Source of the DNA: a virus
Taxonomy: Duplodnaviria > Caudoviricetes
Reading direction: 5' to 3' (one strand)
Length of the DNA stretch: 54,934 nucleotides
Virus record (IMG/VR): IMGVR_UViG_3300029263_001128
Location: 1-54,934 of that record
Under the pieces are notes generated by a model, which was not told where the DNA came from, made no database searches, and worked only from the letters and a program-made list of their open reading frames with translations. A program made the position numbers and the translations under genes. Position 1 is the stretch's first letter. The number at the start of each line of letters is the position of its first letter. Shown here piece after piece: positions 2,192-18,231 of the stretch.

Positions 2192-2212
2192 GATAGAAGG
2201 TTCACACACCAC

Positions 2213-2431
2213 ATGTCGAGAACACAAGAATCCCCAGCTTCAGTAGAGGTTGGGGATTTGGTCGTCTTAAAGCACGATTATTTCCGGCAAGTAGGCTATG
2301 GGATAGTGTTACATCCCAGCATCATACCCCAGAAGTGCGTGGTATTCTGGTTGAGGCTGTCTATAAGCCAGACAGAGTTCTACAATGATTTAGAAATACC
2401 ACCTTGCGGTCCTCCCGCGCGTGCGTTATAA
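2213..2431 (+). CDS. small SH3/KOW-like hypothetical protein
   Basis: VEVGDLVVLK ... GYGIVL ... VVFW pattern. Confidence 0.55.
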   Translation: MSRTQESPASVEVGDLVVLKHDYFRQVGYGIVLHPSIIPQKCVVFWLRLSISQTEFYNDLEIPPCGPPARAL

Positions 2432-2432
2432 T
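2404..2432 (+). promoter_or_regulatory. sigma70-type promoter TTGCGG-N17-TATAAT
   Basis: perfect -10, weak -35. Confidence 0.5.
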
Positions 2433-2467
2433 AGTAGTATAAGCCAGATAATTTCTTTGGAGGCACT

Positions 2468-2791
2468 GTGACGTGGAAAACTTTTTTAATTGCATTCTCG
2501 GTAGGCTGTGGCGGCGACATTGCCTATTATGATAGTGGAGAGCCGCTGTATCCTATCGAAGAGTGGACGTGTTCTCATAATGAGTCCCGTTATTCCGCCT
2601 ATGTGGAGGCGTCTACTATTGATTTGGAAGAGTGGACGGCAATAGACTTCTTTATTCACGACCATGATAGCAGCTATAGCTTGCCAATGAAGAAGCACGA
2701 AGATGGCTACTGGCGAACCTCTGGGAACATCTATGAGCTTGACTGCAATTCTGACAATTTGGGCACCTTTTGGGTCTACTACGAATTGTGA
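2468..2791 (+). CDS. putative lipoprotein
   Basis: GGAGG RBS, GTG start; short hydrophobic signal ending SVGC. Confidence 0.55.
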   Translation: MTWKTFLIAFSVGCGGDIAYYDSGEPLYPIEEWTCSHNESRYSAYVEASTIDLEEWTAIDFFIHDHDSSYSLPMKKHEDGYWRTSGNIYELDCNSDNLGTFWVYYEL

Positions 2792-3002
2792 TTTCTAGTG
2801 TGTTTGAGAGTGCGCCTGTAGTGGCGGTTTTGACGATGCGGAGGTGGAAACTTTTAGCGCAAGAAAAAGTTGCGGCAAAATAGGTGGTAAAAGAAGATAA
2901 ATTTTTTGCGTGCTTTGATTATGAGCATAGGGGTTTACGGACTATTTAAGTGTGCGCTCCCGTTGTTATGTGCTTGGGAGTCTATAAAGGAACTCTTATA
3001 AC

Positions 3003-3764
3003 ATGTTTAAACTAAAATCTATCTTATTTGCTCTCGTTTTTGCTTTTAGTAGCGTCGCTCGTGCTGAGGATGTCATCACTGAAGCCGTTTCAAATCAAAA
3101 TGTTGCTCTCATTGTCTCCGATGCGAGTATGTCTATGACGGAACGCAAGGTTCGCACTGCTGCGGTTCGCGTTTTCGCAAAGGGCGGTGGGCACGGATCT
3201 GGTTCTTACATCAAACATAAAGACTTCCACTTCATCTTGACAGCACAGCATGTCGCTGACGGCCCTGTTTATTCTGATTATGTCGTAAAGAAGGGCGAAG
3301 AGTCAAAGAAAGCAATCCTCGTTTGGTCTGACAAAACAACTGATATCGCCGTTCTTATGTTATTGACTCCATTTGAGACTATCACACCGATGTCTTTCAA
3401 GATAACTTCCGACATTCCAGAAGTGGGAACAGAGATTTCTTACTCTGGTTACCCCTCAAGCCACCAGTTGATGTCTATTCGTGGCAGAGTCGCTGGTTAT
3501 GAGCAGAAAAATGGTGCCGGAACTCAGATAATGCTACACACCTACGGGTGGTTTGGCTGTTCTGGTTCTGTAATCTACAATAAAAAAGAAGAAATCATTG
3601 GAGTTTTGTGGGGAGTTGATGTAGAATACTACCCTGGGATGGCTGTTGTTGAAGAGATGGTTTGGGTTATCCCGGTCCAGAAGTTAAAGATGGACGAAGT
3701 CGTAGAAAATACCTGTAAAACTAAGGGCACAAAGCAAGACCTATCTCGCTTTTGTAGAAGATAA
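3003..3764 (+). CDS. secreted trypsin-like serine protease
   Basis: signal peptide (..VARA), LTAQHV His, DIAVL Asp, GCSGS Ser. Confidence 0.85.
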   Translation: MFKLKSILFALVFAFSSVARAEDVITEAVSNQNVALIVSDASMSMTERKVRTAAVRVFAKGGGHGSGSYIKHKDFHFILTAQHVADGPVYSDYVVKKGEESKKAILVWSDKTTDIAVLMLLTPFETITPMSFKITSDIPEVGTEISYSGYPSSHQLMSIRGRVAGYEQKNGAGTQIMLHTYGWFGCSGSVIYNKKEEIIGVLWGVDVEYYPGMAVVEEMVWVIPVQKLKMDEVVENTCKTKGTKQDLSRFCRR

Positions 3765-3765
3765 A

Positions 3766-4455
3766 TTGAAATTATTACTTGAAAATTGGAGAAAGTTTAT
3801 TAACGAAGCCGACGATTCTAACTTCACGGTCTCAATGGACCCTCAAGACTTTTTGACCCTAACCTATCAGGACGATGCTGACATCGAAGGCAGATCCGAC
3901 TACATTATTGGAATGCCGGGCGGTTTTGATAAGGCGAAAGCCGGTAAACTATCTCTCGTTATCAAGAAGTGTTACGGCGACGATGTAGATAAGGTAATTT
4001 CCCACGCCGGGCGCGCACGATCTATGGCTGCTATGAAGTCGAGCATCGAGCAAGTGCCCGTAATCTTGACTTTTGTTAATTGTGAAGAGCAGCCTGTTCG
4101 TGGAATGAGCAGCTTAAGCTTTACTACAGGCCGGATAGAGGGGCAATTTGATAATTCTTCTGTCTCGGTGGACAAAATAGGCCAACACGAATCCCAAGGC
4201 ATCCTTGATCTTGACACAAAGACAGAAATGTCAGTAGGAGAATTGCTAAAAGTCCTACGAATTGCTTCTTTGGAGAAATCCAGAAGCAACTACAGAATGG
4301 CTGACCTTGTTTTGGACCTAAACAAAGAATATAATTTTATGTTCTCGGGCGGACCTGAACAGGTGAAGGTTATAGTGAGAAACGGACTTCGTTTTCCGGG
4401 GTTTGAGTCAGATCCTCCCGAAGATTCCAATGTAAAAGTCTTAAATAAAGAATAA
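3766..4455 (+). CDS. leader-bearing cassette 1: ParB/Srx-like domain protein
   Basis: MKLLLENWRKFINE leader (TTG start); VISHAGRARSMAA..VPVIL resembles degenerate ParB-like GxHR motif. Confidence 0.6.
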   Translation: MKLLLENWRKFINEADDSNFTVSMDPQDFLTLTYQDDADIEGRSDYIIGMPGGFDKAKAGKLSLVIKKCYGDDVDKVISHAGRARSMAAMKSSIEQVPVILTFVNCEEQPVRGMSSLSFTTGRIEGQFDNSSVSVDKIGQHESQGILDLDTKTEMSVGELLKVLRIASLEKSRSNYRMADLVLDLNKEYNFMFSGGPEQVKVIVRNGLRFPGFESDPPEDSNVKVLNKE

Positions 4456-4457
4456 TA

Positions 4458-5099
4458 ATGAAACTCCTACTTGAAAATTGGCGTGCCTATCTGGATGAAG
4501 AGCAGATAAACGAAAAAATGATGCTGAAACCCGGTCCACAGGGCTGGGATCTCTACGCACAGATAGTTGGCGATGCCTATTTAGCTGCTCCCAGGTTTGA
4601 ACAGAGGGCAGTTCCGCATTTTCAAGCTATGATACCCTTTCTGGAAAAAATGTTTAAGAGGATCTCAAGCAGAGTAGACATAGAATTCGTTGATTACCAC
4701 CCCTACAACACAGCAGCAGAGCTAAGGGATTCGGTAAAGAGCACTGGAAAGATGAAAATAGCAACAATTGATGCTGAAAACGATGTATTTGATGAGATCA
4801 CAAACGCAAAATTCAGAGCGGTCCACGATTATATGTCTCACATTCAGGCAATTGGTTCAAGAGGGACTGAATTTGATTTGAGAGGGGAGCTTGCCTCCTA
4901 TAATGCTCACCTCAAAACAATGCCACAGGAGTCTATTCCTGCCTTATTTACCGAGATTGTCGGACAGACTTGTGCCTATCACGCTGGTGGTGGCACTTTC
5001 GCAGAACAGAAGATCTGTCTATTAGATGGCTTCGATTACACCAACCTTGGTGTTGTCGAGGGTTACGACATAGTTAATAAGGAATTGGTAAAGAAATGA
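4458..5099 (+). CDS. leader-bearing cassette 2: putative metal-binding (HDxxxH..GE) protein
   Basis: MKLLLENWRAYLDE leader; FRAVHDYMSH...RGE motif. Confidence 0.6.
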   Translation: MKLLLENWRAYLDEEQINEKMMLKPGPQGWDLYAQIVGDAYLAAPRFEQRAVPHFQAMIPFLEKMFKRISSRVDIEFVDYHPYNTAAELRDSVKSTGKMKIATIDAENDVFDEITNAKFRAVHDYMSHIQAIGSRGTEFDLRGELASYNAHLKTMPQESIPALFTEIVGQTCAYHAGGGTFAEQKICLLDGFDYTNLGVVEGYDIVNKELVKK

Positions 5100-5611
5100 A
5101 ACTACTACTTGAAAATTGGCGAAATTTCTTGACTGAAGGAGATGTCTTGCGTATAGGGGCGTCCAATAGAAATATAGAAAATCAAAAAAGTCCAGAACTC
5201 TATGGCAACTGCGGAATGCTTGCTGTAGCTCTTTTAGAAGAAGGTATTAAACGCAACAAACAAGTGCAGGTCGTTTTCCTTCATAGCGCCGAAGATCCCC
5301 TTGAAGACGAAGACTATGACTTATATCATGTTGCCATGTATTATAATGGAAAATATTATGACGATCGTGGAGAAACTACAGAAAAAGAAATGTCTAGCCT
5401 AGTCCCCCTCGGATTAACAACTCCACAAAACGAGGAACCCCGCCAAGGGAGAGACTATAATCTAGATTCTTATATAGTTGATGATATGCAAGGTCTTGAC
5501 TATATTTATAAAATAGTTGAGTCCCTTACAGGCTGGTCAAAAACTTGTGATGAATATAGGCAGAGGTCCATAAAATTTTGGGATGGAATAGACAATGAAA
5601 CTACTACTTGA
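5096..5611 (+). CDS. leader-bearing cassette 3: papain/transglutaminase-like Cys-His-Asp protein
   Basis: MKLLLENWRNFLTE leader; GNCGMLAVAL...HVAMYYNGKYYDDRG. Confidence 0.6.
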   Translation: MKLLLENWRNFLTEGDVLRIGASNRNIENQKSPELYGNCGMLAVALLEEGIKRNKQVQVVFLHSAEDPLEDEDYDLYHVAMYYNGKYYDDRGETTEKEMSSLVPLGLTTPQNEEPRQGRDYNLDSYIVDDMQGLDYIYKIVESLTGWSKTCDEYRQRSIKFWDGIDNETTT

Positions 5612-6248
5612 AAATTGGCGAAAGTTCTTGACTGAAAATGAGGCAGCTTACTTCCCTTGGTTAGAGGAATTAGAAAACAAGGGCGGAAAAGCCCTTATGA
5701 GTCCCGATTTTCAACAAGCAGGTTCGGGAGCATTCCGTGTTGTCTTCAAACCAAAAGGAGATGAGGAGCACGTCATCAAGCTATCGAAAGATCCTCGCAA
5801 CAATTGGATGAATAAGATAGAGTCTGAAACGGCCAACTCTTACCCTGATTTGTTCCCCAAGACATTTGCTCACGCTGATGACTGGGAATGGATTGTCCAA
5901 GAAGCTGTCGAGGTGTTGAGCCGAAAAAACGAACAACAAATGCGTGTTATGTTACAGAAGACTTTTCCAAACATTTATGTTGTCTTCAAGGGCGCAACTA
6001 TAAAAGATTATGAACTTTTTCTCTTATGGAGCGATATCGTAGATGCCGCCAAAGGCCCTTACGCAACAAAAGACCAAAAGATTTTTGATTTTGGAATAAA
6101 AAATGAAAAAGCCTTTATTCAACTTGCTTCAGCTATCTCTAGATTCAAAATAGACAGCGAAGATCTGGGTTATGGCAACATAGGGATAAATGAACAAGGA
6201 CAATTAAGGATCTTAGATGCCTCTGTGCTCTTTAGACCAAAGGAATAA
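5595..6248 (+). CDS. leader-bearing cassette 4: protein-kinase-like domain
   Basis: MKLLLENWRKFLTE leader; GSGAFRVVF, VIKL, E, DLGYGNIG, ILD. Confidence 0.7.
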   Translation: MKLLLENWRKFLTENEAAYFPWLEELENKGGKALMSPDFQQAGSGAFRVVFKPKGDEEHVIKLSKDPRNNWMNKIESETANSYPDLFPKTFAHADDWEWIVQEAVEVLSRKNEQQMRVMLQKTFPNIYVVFKGATIKDYELFLLWSDIVDAAKGPYATKDQKIFDFGIKNEKAFIQLASAISRFKIDSEDLGYGNIGINEQGQLRILDASVLFRPKE

Positions 6249-6250
6249 TT

Positions 6251-6730
6251 ATGAAAATATTACTTGAAAACTGGCGGCGATTTATAAATGAGGATGTGCG
6301 AGTCACATTTAAAAAAGCAATTGATCTGGTCTGCCCTCCGGCAACGCAGGACTTGAAGCTTAACACAAAGAACCGTGATTCCGCAATTCATACTGAATAT
6401 ATCCAGTATGGCCCTTTAAATGTAGATAAGCCCGGTGACTACTGGGAGGAAATAGCAGATTATTGGGACTCAACCGAAGAAGCAGCCGAAGCTTCTAACT
6501 GTGGAGTTTGCACTGCTTTTGACATCTCTCCTCGGATGCTGGAATGTATGCCCGGAGAGACATCCGATGACGACGGGCTTCTCGGCTATTGCTGGATGCA
6601 CCACTTCAAGTGCCACTCTGCGCGAGCTTGTAGGACTTGGGCAAAAGGTGGCCCGATAGAAGAAGATTCAGTTTCTGCTGATTGGCAGGAGCGCTCAAAT
6701 ATTGGAGATAAAGATGAAACTCCTACTTGA
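6251..6730 (+). CDS. leader-bearing cassette 5: Cys/His-rich (HiPIP-like spacing) protein
   Basis: MKILLENWRRFINE leader; CGVCTAF...GYCWMHHFKC...CRTW. Confidence 0.6.
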   Translation: MKILLENWRRFINEDVRVTFKKAIDLVCPPATQDLKLNTKNRDSAIHTEYIQYGPLNVDKPGDYWEEIADYWDSTEEAAEASNCGVCTAFDISPRMLECMPGETSDDDGLLGYCWMHHFKCHSARACRTWAKGGPIEEDSVSADWQERSNIGDKDETPT

Positions 6731-7154
6731 AAACTGGAATAGGTTTTTGGCTGAAGCTGTAGAACTCCCTTCTGAATGTGAAGGTGAGGAAGGATATTAT
6801 CACTCTCTTCCCTCGTCTTTGATCAAGTCCGTACTAAGAAACGGACTCCGACCCAGCCCATCAGGGAGCGATTCAAAGTTCGGATTGGGTGAATGGTCTG
6901 CTGGCAAGTCTTTTATCTCGATGGGATATAGTAATGCAGTAAAGTGGCAAGTTCAGATAGAAGAGGCAACAGGTGAGCCTGCTGGCATTGTTCAGATAGA
7001 ACTGCCAGATGATTTTATAAATGCTCTGAAGCTTGACACACAGGCCGTAGATGACGGAGATCATTGTGCTTTCTATGTAGAAGAGGTAATTCCATCAAAG
7101 TTTATCACCCTGCTTGATTATGGCCCATCTGATTACTTTGAAGACGATGAATGA
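6714..7154 (+). CDS. leader-bearing cassette 6: ADP-ribosyltransferase-like domain
   Basis: true start ATG6714 (GGAG RBS); MKLLLENWNRFLAE; YYHS..SVLRNGLRP..SFIS..VEEVIP resembles Tpt1/KptA-like ART fold. Confidence 0.6.
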   Translation: MKLLLENWNRFLAEAVELPSECEGEEGYYHSLPSSLIKSVLRNGLRPSPSGSDSKFGLGEWSAGKSFISMGYSNAVKWQVQIEEATGEPAGIVQIELPDDFINALKLDTQAVDDGDHCAFYVEEVIPSKFITLLDYGPSDYFEDDE

Positions 7155-7183
7155 AGCTCCTAATTGAAAGTTGGCGCAACTAA
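7151..7183 (+). pseudogene. empty leader-only cassette MKLLIESWRN*
   Basis: ATGAAGCTCCTAATTGAAAGTTGGCGCAACTAA, ATGA-coupled to cassette 6; absent from ORF track (too short). Confidence 0.8.
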
Positions 7184-7220: not shown

Positions 7221-7646
7221 ATGAAGATTACCAAAGCAAGACTAAAACAGATCATCAAGGAAGAACTTGAGAATGTAGTGGAGGACCGCCAACCAAAATA
7301 TAAAATCAAGGCTTCTGATGTTAGCAAGGCACGTAAGATCCTTAATTATGCTGGTCACGGCTATGCCCTTGACGATGAGGGTAATCTACAAGCAGACGAT
7401 AAGTCCGTTAAGCTGCTTATCCCGAGCGGGATCGGTGTTCGGAGTGTGGAGGAAAAATTAAATGAAGAACTCACCCGTCAAGACAAAACCGATGTAAAGA
7501 AGATGGTCAAGGACGAACTTGAGAAGCTGCTTAAGAAAAAGGATACCAAGGATCAGATGGGTGAGATTGCAAAGAGAATTCTAAAGAAGCTTTACAAGGA
7601 TCTTTCATTAGAGCATCCATACATTATTGACCGCATCAAGATTTGA
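7221..7646 (+). CDS. putative head/internal protein with MKITKARLKQIIKEE leader
   Basis: CTATTTA motif and GAGG RBS upstream; internal LNEE and KKMVKDE repeats. Confidence 0.7.
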   Translation: MKITKARLKQIIKEELENVVEDRQPKYKIKASDVSKARKILNYAGHGYALDDEGNLQADDKSVKLLIPSGIGVRSVEEKLNEELTRQDKTDVKKMVKDELEKLLKKKDTKDQMGEIAKRILKKLYKDLSLEHPYIIDRIKI

Positions 7647-9515: not shown

Positions 9516-9683
9516 ATGAAGCAGACCAATAGTTTTGTCGATTCCATGTCTCTGACATGTGTTTTGATAAACATTGGTCTGTTCTTGTTTGCGTGCTGGT
9601 CCGGCTATTTACAAATACAACTATTAACACTATTTAATGTTGCCTGCTTTTCGTTGTATTTTTTAATTCTAGGTAGAAAATAA
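9516..9683 (+). CDS. 55-aa membrane protein MKQTNSFVDS...LILGRK
   Basis: open frame after CTATTTA(9490) and GAGG; two hydrophobic segments; TAATG-coupled to kinase; not in ORF track. Confidence 0.55.
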   Translation: MKQTNSFVDSMSLTCVLINIGLFLFACWSGYLQIQLLTLFNVACFSLYFLILGRK

Positions 9684-10900
9684 TGTATCAAAAATTTTGG
9701 AATCAATTTTTAATAGAACAAGAAGAACTTGTTGGAACCACTGTTGACTTTCCTCCAGCTAACTCAAAAAGAATTGGTAGAAAATGGGGTGCAGGTGATA
9801 AGCCTGCTCGCGTGCCGCCCCCGGCACGTTCCCACCCATCCCCCTTTACCACAGGGATTGGGGCTTATTTAATTAGCAAAGGCTATGATTTAGATACAAA
9901 GCTTGGTGGCGGCGTTGATGGCATTGTCTACCGAGCAATAAATAAAAAGACCGGTAAGAACGTGGCTGTAAAAGTTGTTCTCAGAACAACACAGGGAGAT
10001 ATGAAAAGAGAAGCTGCTAACTACAAATTCATTTTAGATAACAGAGAATCACTTGGACAATATGCAAAATATTTCCCCGTGGTTTATTCTTCGGAAATAG
10101 ACCAGATACCTGCAAACAAAGAGACAATGGAAGGAAGAAAAGTAGAAGCTGCCATTATTATTATGGAACAACTTGAACTTCTGCCAGACGATGTTGCAAG
10201 AAGTCTTTTTGCAACAAATGTCAATTATAAGAAAGACAAGCAAGCAAGAACCCAGAGAGACAAGAGGCTTTTTAAAAGCTATAAACTCGTTGGAAACCTG
10301 ATCAACATGGCTATTAGCTTAACTGATCCCGCATACACAAGTCCATTCATCTCTTATGAGGCGCAAGAAAAAATAGAAAAATCAATAATAACAACAATGT
10401 TTGGTAAGAAGCGTTACGCCCCGGTGCGACCGGCGGGTGTCTCGCCTTTAGGGGTCCAAGGGTTGACTGATGAGGCTAAGGAACTTATGAACTTATTCGT
10501 AAATGTGACGTATACGTCAATACTAAGAGATCCTACGAGTAAAGCAGATATGGATATTGTTATGGATTACAAAGATATTATCAAGCGTGATTTAGCAAAC
10601 GCTTTTATTAAAGCGTATTCTCGACCCATTGTCTCTGGGGGTGTCCCTGACGCCCTCAGAGTAGGCTCAAGCTTAAAGGGTTTTGACCAATACTATTCTT
10701 CTGAAGATGCGGTAGGTGACCATTTCCCAGAGTCAGTTGGGATCAGAAAGGCAATGCAAGCACTCTCAGGCGAAGGTTTAAAGCCATTTGATGTTCACAA
10801 CGGAAATGTTATGATGAGACCCAAGACAAATGAGATTGTTATTGTTGACCTTGGGAGGTTCAAGGGGCTTGAAACCAACGAAAGTCTCAGAAATGTATGA
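9683..10900 (+). CDS. Ser/Thr protein kinase-like protein with large insertion
   Basis: LGGGVDGIVY, VAVK, E, IIMEQL, DVHNGNVM, IVDLG; N-terminal FWNQFLIE leader variant. Confidence 0.8.
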   Translation: MYQKFWNQFLIEQEELVGTTVDFPPANSKRIGRKWGAGDKPARVPPPARSHPSPFTTGIGAYLISKGYDLDTKLGGGVDGIVYRAINKKTGKNVAVKVVLRTTQGDMKREAANYKFILDNRESLGQYAKYFPVVYSSEIDQIPANKETMEGRKVEAAIIIMEQLELLPDDVARSLFATNVNYKKDKQARTQRDKRLFKSYKLVGNLINMAISLTDPAYTSPFISYEAQEKIEKSIITTMFGKKRYAPVRPAGVSPLGVQGLTDEAKELMNLFVNVTYTSILRDPTSKADMDIVMDYKDIIKRDLANAFIKAYSRPIVSGGVPDALRVGSSLKGFDQYYSSEDAVGDHFPESVGIRKAMQALSGEGLKPFDVHNGNVMMRPKTNEIVIVDLGRFKGLETNESLRNV

Positions 10901-11228
10901 ATATGATGCCATTTGTTCTCGCGTAGTGGATGGAGACACCATCGATGCTCGTGTTGATCTGGGATTCCGTGTCTGGATAGAGTGTAGAGTGCGTTTGCTG
11001 GGCATAGACGCCCCTGAGACGCGCACAAAAGACTTGGAGGAAAAGAAGGCTGGCTTTAAAACTAAGGCGTTCCTAGAGGCACTTATGGATGATTGTGGGC
11101 ATAACTTCAAACTTCAGTCTCACGGCGTTGGAAAGTTTGGAAGATGCCTCGGTGTCATCTACATCGACGGCGAAAACATAAATGAAAGACTAATTGCCGA
11201 AGGTCTTGCCGATAATTACGCAAAGTAG
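10893..11228 (+). CDS. thermonuclease (SNase-like)
   Basis: start MYEY; RVVDGDT, RLLGIDAPE, GKFGRCLG, INERLIAEGLA. Confidence 0.9.
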   Translation: MYEYDAICSRVVDGDTIDARVDLGFRVWIECRVRLLGIDAPETRTKDLEEKKAGFKTKAFLEALMDDCGHNFKLQSHGVGKFGRCLGVIYIDGENINERLIAEGLADNYAK

Positions 11229-11274
11229 TGGCCTAGAAGGCGTTTTCGTGTTATGTTACCGGTAGGAGTTAGTA

Positions 11275-12270
11275 ATGGGCGGCAATGTTTTCACTGGTGA
11301 GGCTGTTGAGTCAATCCCTATGGAGTTTATCCAGCCGACACTGGCGGCTTACTACCAAGAACTATCGGCTTTGTTCCCCCAGCACTCCAATTTCTTTAAA
11401 ACCTTCACCACTTTGGGGTCTGTCGGTAAGAAAAGCAAGTCTGGCGACATTGATCTGGCTGTAGACGTAAAGAAATTGTTCCCGCAAGGCCGGATAACCA
11501 CCGAAGATCTACAAAGTTGGAACCTAAATCCCGCGTTGTGGCGTGAAACCTATGAAAAAATGCTAAAGCGGGCACGAACTGCTACACCACACGAGGTTTC
11601 ACTGCGTGCGTTCCTCTATGAACTATCAAAATACATTGGTGAGCGCTCTAATTTGATCAAAAGTGACCTTAAAAAGGTGCGTCCAGGCCAAATGTTCACG
11701 CTTTTCCCCCAAATTACCGATTTTGGTCAGCAAATGGAGGTCTCCGTCCAGATTGATTGGATGTTGGGAGACCCAGAATGGCTAAAATTCTCTTATTTTT
11801 CCCCAATGCCCTCCAAAAGACAGCCTATGTTGAAGGGATTACACAGAACCCAGTTGATTTTGGCGATGTTTGGGGCAAAAGGCTATGCGTTTAGGCATGT
11901 GGGCGGTGTATTTCACAAGACCACAGGCAAAAAGGTCGCCCATAGCCCTTCAGAAGCCTCTGAACTGCTCCAAAAACTCTATGAGACACCTGTTACCACT
12001 CAAAAATTAGAATGCTTCAGCACCATCTACAGCTTTCTAACGTCCAGTTGTTCCAATGATGACCAAAATGGCGCCTTTGACTCTTATTTGTGCATCCTAG
12101 ACTACACAAATGGCAACAAAGAAGTTGATCCAAGCAGCGGAGAATGGCGTCGGTGTGGCTATATCCCTCAAGAACTAGAGGAATATTGGATCCTAAACAA
12201 AGAAAGACTTGGTTTGAAGGGCAGGTACCTCTGTAAGACCGCGAATCACAGGCTCCGTGCGTCGTTATAA
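11275..12270 (+). CDS. Pol-beta-superfamily nucleotidyltransferase-like protein
   Basis: LGSVGKK..SGDIDLAVD and VQIDWM third Asp. Confidence 0.7.
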   Translation: MGGNVFTGEAVESIPMEFIQPTLAAYYQELSALFPQHSNFFKTFTTLGSVGKKSKSGDIDLAVDVKKLFPQGRITTEDLQSWNLNPALWRETYEKMLKRARTATPHEVSLRAFLYELSKYIGERSNLIKSDLKKVRPGQMFTLFPQITDFGQQMEVSVQIDWMLGDPEWLKFSYFSPMPSKRQPMLKGLHRTQLILAMFGAKGYAFRHVGGVFHKTTGKKVAHSPSEASELLQKLYETPVTTQKLECFSTIYSFLTSSCSNDDQNGAFDSYLCILDYTNGNKEVDPSSGEWRRCGYIPQELEEYWILNKERLGLKGRYLCKTANHRLRASL

Positions 12271-12309
12271 GTCTCTTGAGCCTATTTATTGGGCACAGGA
12301 GGGCTGACA

Positions 12310-17204: not shown

Positions 17205-17555
17205 ATGAAGAAGAATAGAAGATCAAAGTATAGATACAAGAGTATAATTAATAAATTATTAAATAATAATATCATAAATGAGAGTAACCTTACTTTCATT
17301 GATAGTATGTCTTTAGAAGATTTGATTGCTGTTAAATTAGAACTCTCAGCAAAACACATAAACAATAAGCTTTATGCTTTCAATCTCTTATCTAATACCA
17401 ATAGACTAGTTAAAGAAGCAATCATAAAGTTTGCTATCAGTGCTACTAACTCTAAAATGGATGCTGCTAGGTTTCTTGGAACTGACTATGAAACTCTACA
17501 CTCACTAGTTAGAGAATACAACTTACAGGAGTTCTTTGATGAAATTAATAATTGA
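17205..17555 (+). CDS. putative DNA-binding protein, Fis-like C-terminal HTH
   Basis: SKMDAARFLGTDYETL..LVREY; TTGACA at 17171 upstream. Confidence 0.6.
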   Translation: MKKNRRSKYRYKSIINKLLNNNIINESNLTFIDSMSLEDLIAVKLELSAKHINNKLYAFNLLSNTNRLVKEAIIKFAISATNSKMDAARFLGTDYETLHSLVREYNLQEFFDEINN

Positions 17556-18231
17556 AAACTTCAGAAAGTTCTTAGTAGAACAAAACTTTATTTCTGAGAT
17601 TCCGTTAGAACAAGATGAAGAAGGTAACGTCATCCTCTATCACGTATCCAGAGTAGATGACATAGAAGAGTTAGACCCTGACATCGCAGCAAGAAACCTT
17701 CAGAACTACACCACAGCAGAGTATAGAACCTGGGATAGACCCAGAGTTTTCTTTTTTACTCGTCTCGGACAAGAAGATATTGGCATTGGTCAGATACAGG
17801 GTATACCTTACCGTGTTAGACTAAAACCAGATCAACTCTACCCGATTATGGAAGACCCGGCAGGACTATCTTCCAAGCAAGAACAACAAAACTGGATGAC
17901 AGAGAACATTCCAGAGTTTGCTGAAAAGACACAAGAAGCACAGAAGTGTTCTAACTTTGAACGCTATGGCCAATACCATATTTGTTCTAAGACCCCAGAT
18001 TCAGATGGGTTATATTTTACTGATGAGAGGTTTGCAGGAAAAATGTTTCTTGTAAACAATCCTAAGTTTCATCACCTTAAACCAAACACATACGAAATGG
18101 TTGCACAACTATCAGAAGAGCGTTATAATAGTATAGGGTTCATTTATCCACAGAGTGGCGAAAAAGACAAACAGATCGTTGCTTTGTGGCGTAAGGTTCC
18201 AACAGAGAAACTAGATAAAGATTTTTATTAG
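17539..18231 (+). CDS. leader-bearing protein, ADP-ribosyltransferase-like domain
   Basis: MKLIIENFRKFLVE leader; VILYHVS..ELDP..PRVFFF..YRVRL. Confidence 0.55.
   Translation: MKLIIENFRKFLVEQNFISEIPLEQDEEGNVILYHVSRVDDIEELDPDIAARNLQNYTTAEYRTWDRPRVFFFTRLGQEDIGIGQIQGIPYRVRLKPDQLYPIMEDPAGLSSKQEQQNWMTENIPEFAEKTQEAQKCSNFERYGQYHICSKTPDSDGLYFTDERFAGKMFLVNNPKFHHLKPNTYEMVAQLSEERYNSIGFIYPQSGEKDKQIVALWRKVPTEKLDKDFY

Follow-up and report, generated by a model that had tools for sequence, protein, structure and literature searches.

Two arrangements described in T4-type phages come closest to the locus presented here. The internal proteins of T-even phages are portrayed as very diverse, having in common only a capsid-targeting sequence (CTS) of 10-20 residues at the N-terminus, which loads these proteins onto the scaffolding core and is afterwards cleaved off (PMC3012670, PMC5694885, PMC12373910, PMC8442874). 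The T4 protease gp21 is reported to cleave head proteins after L/I-X-E (PMC9026906). T-even internal-protein loci are described as hyperplastic (PMC2839356), and the few internal proteins studied so far as anti-restriction factors (PMC12373910). The second arrangement is that of the promoter-early stem-loop (PeSL) cassettes of T4-type phages (Arbiol et al. 2010, PMC2839356; Comeau et al. 2014, PMC4122927). The DNA analysed here, termed the window, is a fragment of 54,934 nt from IMG/VR (IMGVR_UViG_3300029263_001128, positions 1-54,934). Between positions 3766 and 7183, it carries an array of six complete genes and one 10-codon stub, all on the + strand, with products that start approximately as MKLLLENWRxFLxE. 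This N-terminal stretch of 14 residues, encoded by 42 nt, is called the leader below. The explanation that best accounts for the whole, and that is considered rather probable, is that of a CTS-like leader marking shuffled cassettes, in which the leader is the crossover site and the stop codons that it contains are mostly a by-product.

The leader is repeated in the window as DNA and as peptide. The 13-mer ACTTGAAAAYTGG has six exact matches, all on the + strand (3777, 4469, 5107, 5606, 6262, and 6725), whereas 0.01 are expected from shuffles, and none of 100 shuffles reaches six. The initial annotation of this DNA had counted six leader copies; the six exact copies of the 13-mer are indeed present, but the leaders number eight plus one short form, with starts at 3766 (a TTG start), 4458, 5096, 5595, 6251, 6714, 7151 (the stub), and 17539. 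Those at 5096 and 5595 differ at one of 42 nt, exactly as had been claimed, and such near identity would suit a mere recent tandem duplication of a gene start that has no function. The remaining leader pairs of the window differ at 8-18 of 42 nt, and the family extends well beyond the window. A DNA pattern scan of viral contigs, with the amino acids of codons 1-9 fixed and codon choice left free, returned at least 168 matches on at least 120 contigs. A slightly relaxed peptide rule that also admits GTG and TTG starts, applied to the window and the 120 loci listed, yields 207 leader-bearing open reading frames (ORFs), with the consensus MK[LI][LI][LMFI]ENWRx[FY][LIV]xE. Residues 10-14 were free in the search and are conserved nonetheless, residue 11 being Y or F in 185 of the 207, residue 12 L, I, V, or M in 179, and residue 14 E in 158. 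Beyond residue 14, similarity collapses. Nine of the 207 bodies have fewer than 40 residues beyond residue 16 and were left out of clustering; the 198 comparable ones, among the matches listed, fall into 105 blastp clusters that are mutually unrelated. Almost no Pfam or PHROG family was found among ten cluster representatives and seven window proteins. Two of the window cassettes fall among viral "hypothetical protein" clusters of a protein atlas, and the structure predicted for the cluster-3 cassette has a mean predicted local distance difference test score (pLDDT) of 37.6, too low to use. A leader so widespread, present on at least 120 viral contigs and in front of 105 body families, rules out a plain recent duplication, and given its amino-acid conservation, a functionless copy of a gene start is scarcely credible.

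In its full form, the leader is essentially confined to viruses. The pattern used for the viral contigs has 71 matches in 596 Gb of prokaryote genomes; only 11 of these are full leaders, mostly located on metagenome-assembled contigs of 1.5-16 kb. Most of the other prokaryote matches (L137-L204) lie in an internal ...IENWRW.GVPFY.R.GK... stretch preceded by an open frame of ~160-590 codons (mostly 280-430), and were rejected as false positives. This stretch, which in bacteria we take to belong to glucose-6-phosphate dehydrogenase, is a trap for leader motif searches. The blastn matches of the 46-nt leader were likewise discarded as chance (E 3-10); one that was inspected sits 36 nt inside a small RB14 ORF and not at a gene start. 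A homologue search with residues 1-40 retrieved five proteins from eight candidates, unnamed or named "hypothetical protein", and says nothing on spread. No description of the leader was found in the literature, including under the strings ENWRKF, ENWRKY, and LMENWR, supplements being outside the search, and "N-terminal" has no occurrence in the accessible part of the pelagimyophage paper PMC7029224.

Orthologues with and without the leader join exactly after E14, which identifies it as a detachable module of 14 residues. The window ORF 11275-12270 (+) is leaderless and starts as M-GGNVF...; its homologue in another locus (L009) starts as MKLLLENWRKFLNE-GGNVF..., and residue 2 onward of the former aligns with residue 15 onward of the latter at 46% identity (E 2e-111). 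Other homologues have shortened or degenerate leaders, such as MKYNWNKFITE and MSYKWNSFLTE, in which the peptide core is kept and the DNA is not. The residues that these forms retain define the conserved core W-x-x-[FY]-[LI]-x-E. As such a module, the leader is found on more than 100 unrelated protein families. Of note, the product of ORF 11275-12270 also displays a GS...DIDL motif that appears nucleotidyltransferase-like by eye.

At the DNA level, conservation begins at the ATG and ends near nt 42, and the first 26-29 nt are nearly frozen. A leader acting mainly as a nucleic-acid signal, whether as an enhancer of translation initiation, as the operator of a RegA-like translational repressor, or as a structured RNA, would account for the freezing of codons 2-6 at synonymous sites and for the A-rich 5′ end. 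This is nevertheless very unlikely: RNAalifold finds no pair in 34 leaders taken from -25 to +60, only a weak Shine-Dalgarno signal is conserved upstream of the ATG, and short or degenerate leaders keep the W-x-x-[FY]-[LI]-x-E peptide and not the DNA. Furthermore, the amino acids at residues 8-14 persist while the codons for them vary, all six Arg codons being in use at codon 9 and the aromatic and aliphatic classes being kept at residues 11 and 12. Residues 8-14 are under selection at the peptide level.

To judge from its sequence, the window comes from a marine, uncultured myovirus of the T4-like kind, with a genome of ~190 kb. Its closest relative (G006) is a genome of 191,359 bp, rated complete, with a PhoH-like protein 95% identical to that of the window and a DNA identity to the window of 85-89% over the array. 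Among the genes of this relative are those for a prohead protease of the T4 gp21 type, a T4-type portal, and a gp23-type capsid protein, and the assignment of the window follows from these T4-type head genes and from the alignment between the two. No close cultured phage was found, a 5-kb piece of the window having no blastn match among cultured phages. CheckV estimates the completeness of the window at 9%, which is probably too low; set against the 191-kb relative, a 55-kb window would be nearer 29%.

Comparison with this relative reveals cassette exchange at the leader. Positions 2210-5137 of the window match positions 56581-59507 of G006, positions 5584-6756 match positions 59456-60627, and the two sides overlap by 52 nt in G006. 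The cassette 5096-5594 is exactly absent from the relative, which has a single leader at the place where the window has a leader, a 171-aa body, and a second leader. In the three-way alignment, this single leader is flanked on the left as the 5096 leader is and on the right as the 5595 leader is, with 29 nt in between that are identical in all three; the crossover at this junction falls within leader nt 1-29. The cassette 5096-5594 was gained or lost by crossover inside the leader, and this event explains the near identity of the leaders at 5096 and 5595. The cassette 6714-7154 is exchanged in the relative for a 228-aa body unrelated to it, with homology extending only to about leader nt 43. 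The same picture is seen between two other loci (L087 and L065), with a crossover inside a 27-nt identical core. Among the other loci, 26 clean indels of at least 200 nt are found; all three junction points lie in leaders in eight of them and none in 12, and the eight leader-bounded indels represent at least four separate events. The same body families are found with different neighbours in different contigs. Leaders are also more alike within a locus (0.754) than between loci (0.709), a result that 0 of 500 permutations reach.

Breakpoints were also counted from the ends of high-scoring segment pairs (HSPs), leaving aside HSPs of less than 300 nt and those that end within 60 nt of the edge of a locus. 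Leader windows, though they make up 1.25% of the sequence, hold 274 of the 3520 internal HSP ends, and a breakpoint is found in 79 of 203 leader windows compared with 179 of 776 control gene ends, a ~two-fold excess. Both controls (HSP ends and gene ends) are biased, the loci having been fetched around leaders, and this weakens the case that the counts make for exchange at the leader; the individual junction alignments are the stronger evidence. Taken together, the 5096-5594 difference, the replacement at 6714, and the eight leader-bounded indels bear out the role of recombination handle that the initial annotation had proposed, and the module-and-recombination part of the explanation is held with high confidence. 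In read contigs of four runs, joints and loose ends pile up at leader coordinates, with short sides of 24-32 nt and 85% likeness, which often reflect repeats or other organisms; these were not counted, and neither was the low read cover of positions 5260-5443 in three runs. Separately, window positions 11204-12297 have no DNA match in G006 (matches end at 11203 and resume at 12298), a cassette-like difference without leaders.

The initial annotation had also read the leader as shaped to carry a stop in each non-coding frame, which would terminate and translationally couple any upstream ORF and thereby make a plug-and-play junction. The observations on which it was built are accurate. The TGA at leader nt 2-4 (within ATGA) ends the upstream ORFs at 5099 and 7154, the TGA at leader nt 15-17 (TGA15) ends those at 5611, 6730, and 17555 (tails ...NETTT, ...DETPT, and ...DEINN; the last is ORF 17205-17555, with its TGA at 17553-17555), and the two TGAs lie in different non-coding frames, +1 and +2 relative to the leader. 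At five of the eight window junctions, the upstream gene has a stop that overlaps the downstream leader, the three other genes (ends 3764, 4455, and 6248) stopping on their own codon just before the leader. Overall, after removal of 18 of the 207 leaders as identical cluster-plus-leader duplicates, such overlap is seen at 111 of 189, i.e., upstream stops are not mostly independent of the leader. Codon usage was compared between 187 distinct leaders and a background of 565 long ORFs of the same loci. At codon 5, 79 of 84 Leu codons are CTT (background 0.253), and at codon 6, 172 of 187 Glu codons are GAA (background 0.661), so that the use of CTT-GAA is far above codon bias, in line with the earlier proposal. 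The T at nt 15 is also kept when residue 5 is Ile or Phe (ATT in 10, TTT in 24), and at the junction in G006, where ATT stands for CTT, the upstream ORF still ends there.

The freezing does not point to the stops, however, since codons that make no stop are equally frozen: CTC accounts for 78 of 176 Leu codons at codon 3 (background 0.094), CTA for 80 of 129 Leu codons at codon 4 (0.125), CGA for 87 of 173 Arg codons at codon 9 (0.141), and AAG for 57 of 72 Lys codons at codon 10 (0.375). TGA15 is present in 113 of the 187 distinct leaders and absent from 74, of which 62 have ATG (Met) at codon 5, and 42 of the 187 have no +2 stop anywhere in the 42 nt. Among de-replicated leaders with TGA15 (n = 115), the upstream ORF ends at TGA15 in 17, at the ATGA in 56, by a one-base overlap in 11, and at an earlier stop in 27; the remaining four lack an upstream ORF. 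Where TGA15 is lacking, upstream ORFs run into four of 74 leaders and merely stop at nt 27-54. Control ORF starts from the same loci (n = 565) have stops in both frames within 17 nt in 25.8% of cases and within 45 nt in 55.6%, and an ATGA is available in 51.5%. Run-ins in the +2 frame are not commoner in leaders (21 of 189) than in control ORFs (124 of 754), a comparison in which the first ATG is taken as the control start, which inflates run-ins. The ATGA overlap is the one true enrichment, four-fold, being used at 75 of 189 leaders and at 76 of 754 control ORFs, because the Lys at residue 2 is invariant and the arrays are very tightly packed.

Cassettes of cluster 18 end in the TGA15 of the next leader in three different contexts, i.e., with three different downstream leaders, because a crossover inside the leader leaves the upstream gene with the 5′ part of the next leader. 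The upstream gene thereby keeps its own junction, and no new frame problem arises. The ATGA results from Met-Lys and TGA15 from NNT-GAA, so that both stops follow from the sequence and from tight packing. The controls thus indicate that the stops are used opportunistically and are mostly a by-product of tight packing, the leader not being built around them. They may add some constraint where they are used: the ATGA enrichment and the reliance of cluster 18 on TGA15 leave room for some selection on the stops, a point against taking them wholly as a by-product. With both stops so often present in control starts, and TGA15 missing from many leaders and used at few of those that have it, a leader shaped to terminate any out-of-frame ORF is improbable, and what had been presented as a designed dual-frame stop is ordinary biology.

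A CTS-like function of the leader peptide is judged about evenly balanced, on circumstantial grounds. The leader would dock the attached protein to the prohead core, a gp21-type prohead protease would cut it off after [LIV]-x-E14, and the array would encode a shuffled repertoire of packaged, and probably injected, proteins. As in T-even phages, the leader stands on unrelated bodies and within a hyperplastic array, here of ORFan cassettes. The [LIV]-x-E at the end of the leader (residues 12-14) matches the gp21 cleavage motif at the level of sequence only. A gp21-type protease (PF03420, Peptidase_S77) is encoded by five of five long leader-bearing contigs and by G006. In G006 and in a second genome (G004), a leader-bearing protein is encoded between the portal gene and the prohead protease gene, which in T4 is the place of the genes for the prohead core proteins gp67 and gp68. 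Leaders in the record of the T-even phage RB14 read MKTYQEFITE, MKTFKEF...ITE, and MKTFKEF...ITE, and the short leader forms (MKYNWNKFITE and others) resemble them.

Several observations weigh against this function. A prohead protease gene was not found in the window, which is a 55-kb fragment. The head-module neighbours match no PHROG family and bear the label of core proteins by gene position only. The leader resembles the T-even MKTYQEFIAE type in its MK start, its aromatic/aliphatic core, and its F-[IL]-x-E end, over 10-14 residues, which is too short for statistics. E14 is often followed by an acidic residue (E or D), namely in 72 of the 207 leaders. Some bodies are enzyme-like, with a weak HAD match, a kinase-like match, and, by eye, a nucleotidyltransferase-like motif; leader genes number up to ~10 per genome, compared with three internal proteins in T4; and early promoters of the sigma-70-like type are found in the region of the array. 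The T4-type late promoter TATAAATA has three matches where 1.96 are expected, none of them upstream of the array. Lastly, no leader was found in four cultured T4-like relatives, and tblastn of the cluster-0 protein and of the head-module leader protein against 50,697 cultured-phage records gave no match.

The promoter region, the enzyme-like bodies, and the many leader genes per genome would fit a leader that docks elsewhere than on the prohead, for instance to a host or phage chaperone, to a membrane or compartment, to a protease adaptor for timed degradation, or to a regulatory partner of early proteins. Its hydrophobic pattern fits, by eye, an amphipathic helix, which could have partners of many kinds, residues 2-13 being helical in a low-confidence model. 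Docking elsewhere is unlikely all the same, although it is the strongest competitor: it leaves aside the gp21 cleavage motif found exactly at the end of the module and the leader genes lying between portal and prohead protease in two genomes, and the known T4-type precedent for unrelated proteins with only an N-terminal leader in common is the CTS. The CTS-like function could also be part of an integrase-free, integron-like system, in which the leader would be both the prohead address label and the crossover site for injected cargo genes. This is put forward tentatively, at somewhat less than an even chance; a second leader type (MKITKxxLKQIIKEE...) would then work in parallel. Coordinates of the leader-bearing genes and of those adjoining the array are collected in Table 1.

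Table 1. Leader-bearing genes of the window and genes adjoining the array.
Feature	Position (strand)	Leader	Product and stop
Trypsin-like serine protease, secreted type	3003-3764 (+)		Pfam Trypsin_2; signal-peptide-like N-terminus; own TAA at 3764
Cassette 1	3766..4455 (+)	TTG start, 3766-3807, MKLLLENWRKFINE	229-aa ORFan body
Cassette 2	4458..5099 (+)	4458-4499	213-aa body, phrog_3170; stop is the TGA in the ATGA of the next leader, 5097-5099
Cassette 3	5096..5611 (+)	5096-5137	171-aa body, cluster 18; stop is the TGA at nt 15-17 of the next leader, 5609-5611
Cassette 4	5595..6248 (+)	5595-5636	217-aa body, phrog_4301; own TAA, 6246-6248
Cassette 5	6251..6730 (+)	6251-6292	159-aa Cys-rich body, cluster 3; stop is the TGA at nt 15-17 of the next leader, 6728-6730
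Cassette 6	6714..7154 (+)	6714-6755	146-aa body; stop is the TGA in the ATGA of the stub leader, 7152-7154
Orphan leader stub	7151..7183 (+)	MKLLIESWRN*	10 codons, then TAA; closes the array and gives cassette 6 its stop
First gene after the array	7221..7646 (+)	Second, different N-terminal leader, MKITKARLKQIIKEELENV	
Kinase-like gene	9683..10900 (+)	Short form, MYQKFWNQFLIE, core W-x-x-F-L-x-E	405 aa
Diverged leader copy	17539..18231 (+)	MKLIIENFRKFLVE, codon 5 is ATT	230-aa body

The body of cassette 2 has leaderless relatives in mycobacteriophages, and stubs like the one that closes the array occur in other loci too. The gene of the trypsin-like protease lies directly upstream of the leader array in both phages (positions 57373-58134 in G006). 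Other genes of the window encode PIN-PhoH, a carbamoyltransferase, glycosyltransferases, NeuB, GlmS, and an endolysin.

The second leader, MK[IL]TKxxLKQIIKEE[LIV]..., is often followed by [LVM]-N/D-E near residue 20. It is found on 34 ORFs in 22 of 121 loci and heads diverse small proteins that adjoin W-type arrays. In G006, it heads two genes between the portal and prohead protease genes (L234:2407-2670 and 2773-3255). Contigs of three runs from three studies join position 7259 of the window to position 7464, a 204-nt skip in the gene 7221-7646 with eight shared letters, which suggests a common length variant. Strong matches to sigma-70-like promoters, of the form TTGACA-17-TACATT, are found three times on the + strand upstream of small ORFs (288-316, 1001-1029, and 1247-1275), with further matches at 778-806, 12618, 15610, and 17171; the series looks to be of the early-promoter type, and short pieces of it are conserved in G006. 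Just after its prohead protease gene, G006 encodes a homologue of ribosomal protein S21 (L234:4291-4536; phrog_21469, E 6e-9), and the Microcystis phage Mel-JY01 has the same S21 annotation at that position. In G004, a 356-aa protein encoded right after the prohead protease (L129:2036-3106) displays a leader-like ...ATWRTFLNEG... at residues 17-25.

The locus shows cleanly, in nature, how a stretch of coding sequence can also be the recombination site at which gene modules are exchanged. It thereby carries the concepts of PeSLs and of internal-protein loci beyond coliphages, to uncultured marine lineages. Should the leader prove to be a CTS tag, these phages, abundant in the ocean, would be injecting a large set of uncharacterised proteins with rapid exchange among its members, and the leader would provide a sequence handle for candidate counter-defence genes in marine viromes. 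Were the integron-like system real, the arsenal of injected proteins would be very large and fast-shuffling, the families seen here numbering more than 100.

Compared with known systems, the junctions of the array resemble the overlapping stop-start junctions of compact prokaryote and phage operons (ATGA, 17-nt overlaps), with their "hidden" out-of-frame stops, in that neighbouring genes are joined, and other gene pairs of the window overlap too. In contrast to ordinary overlaps, all +2 run-ins at leaders collapse onto nt 15-17, because the downstream start is a fixed repeat. With integron cassettes, the locus shares a promoterless, same-strand array with a repeated junction, an analogy that the PeSL authors also draw (PMC2839356). 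Unlike the junctions of integrons, the leader repeat is translated and no attC-like fold was found at it, and the ORFs scanned around the array, which do not comprise every ORF of the window, yielded no integrase or other recombinase family.

The likeness to PeSL cassettes is closer. According to PMC2839356, these have a conserved repeat flanking ORFan cassettes in hyperplastic regions, repeat-bounded indels between close relatives with a single chimeric repeat on the shorter genome, and, as the proposed mechanism, short-homology recombination by the phage's own machinery. The repeat itself differs. A PeSL is an intergenic promoter and stem-loop of ~100 bp, whereas the leader is the first ~42 nt of the coding sequence; no PeSL-type stem-loop was found in the leaders, with zero consensus RNA pairs, conservation that starts at the ATG, and genes that overlap.

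The T-even CTS proteins (IpI-III, Ip4, Ip5, and other internal proteins, and Alt) resemble the leader-bearing proteins in having a short N-terminal leader as the only part common to otherwise unrelated proteins, in the L/I-X-E that ends this leader, and in the gp21-type protease. Their hyperplastic loci likewise lie among ORFans, and the repertoire differs between close relatives. The leader described here is longer, with 14 residues and W-x-x-[FY]-[LIV]-x-E instead of MKT[YF][QK]EF..., and it stands in front of far more body families (at least 105 clusters), with up to ~10 genes per genome. The ip genes of RB14 have conserved upstream DNA, whereas here genes overlap, conservation starts from the ATG, and there is no intergenic promoter region. 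Packaging and cleavage are putative in the leader phages, where they are read from sequence. The best reading is that of a T4 internal-protein or CTS-like leader that is itself a shuffling site of the PeSL-like kind, carried by T4-like phages of uncultured marine lineages.

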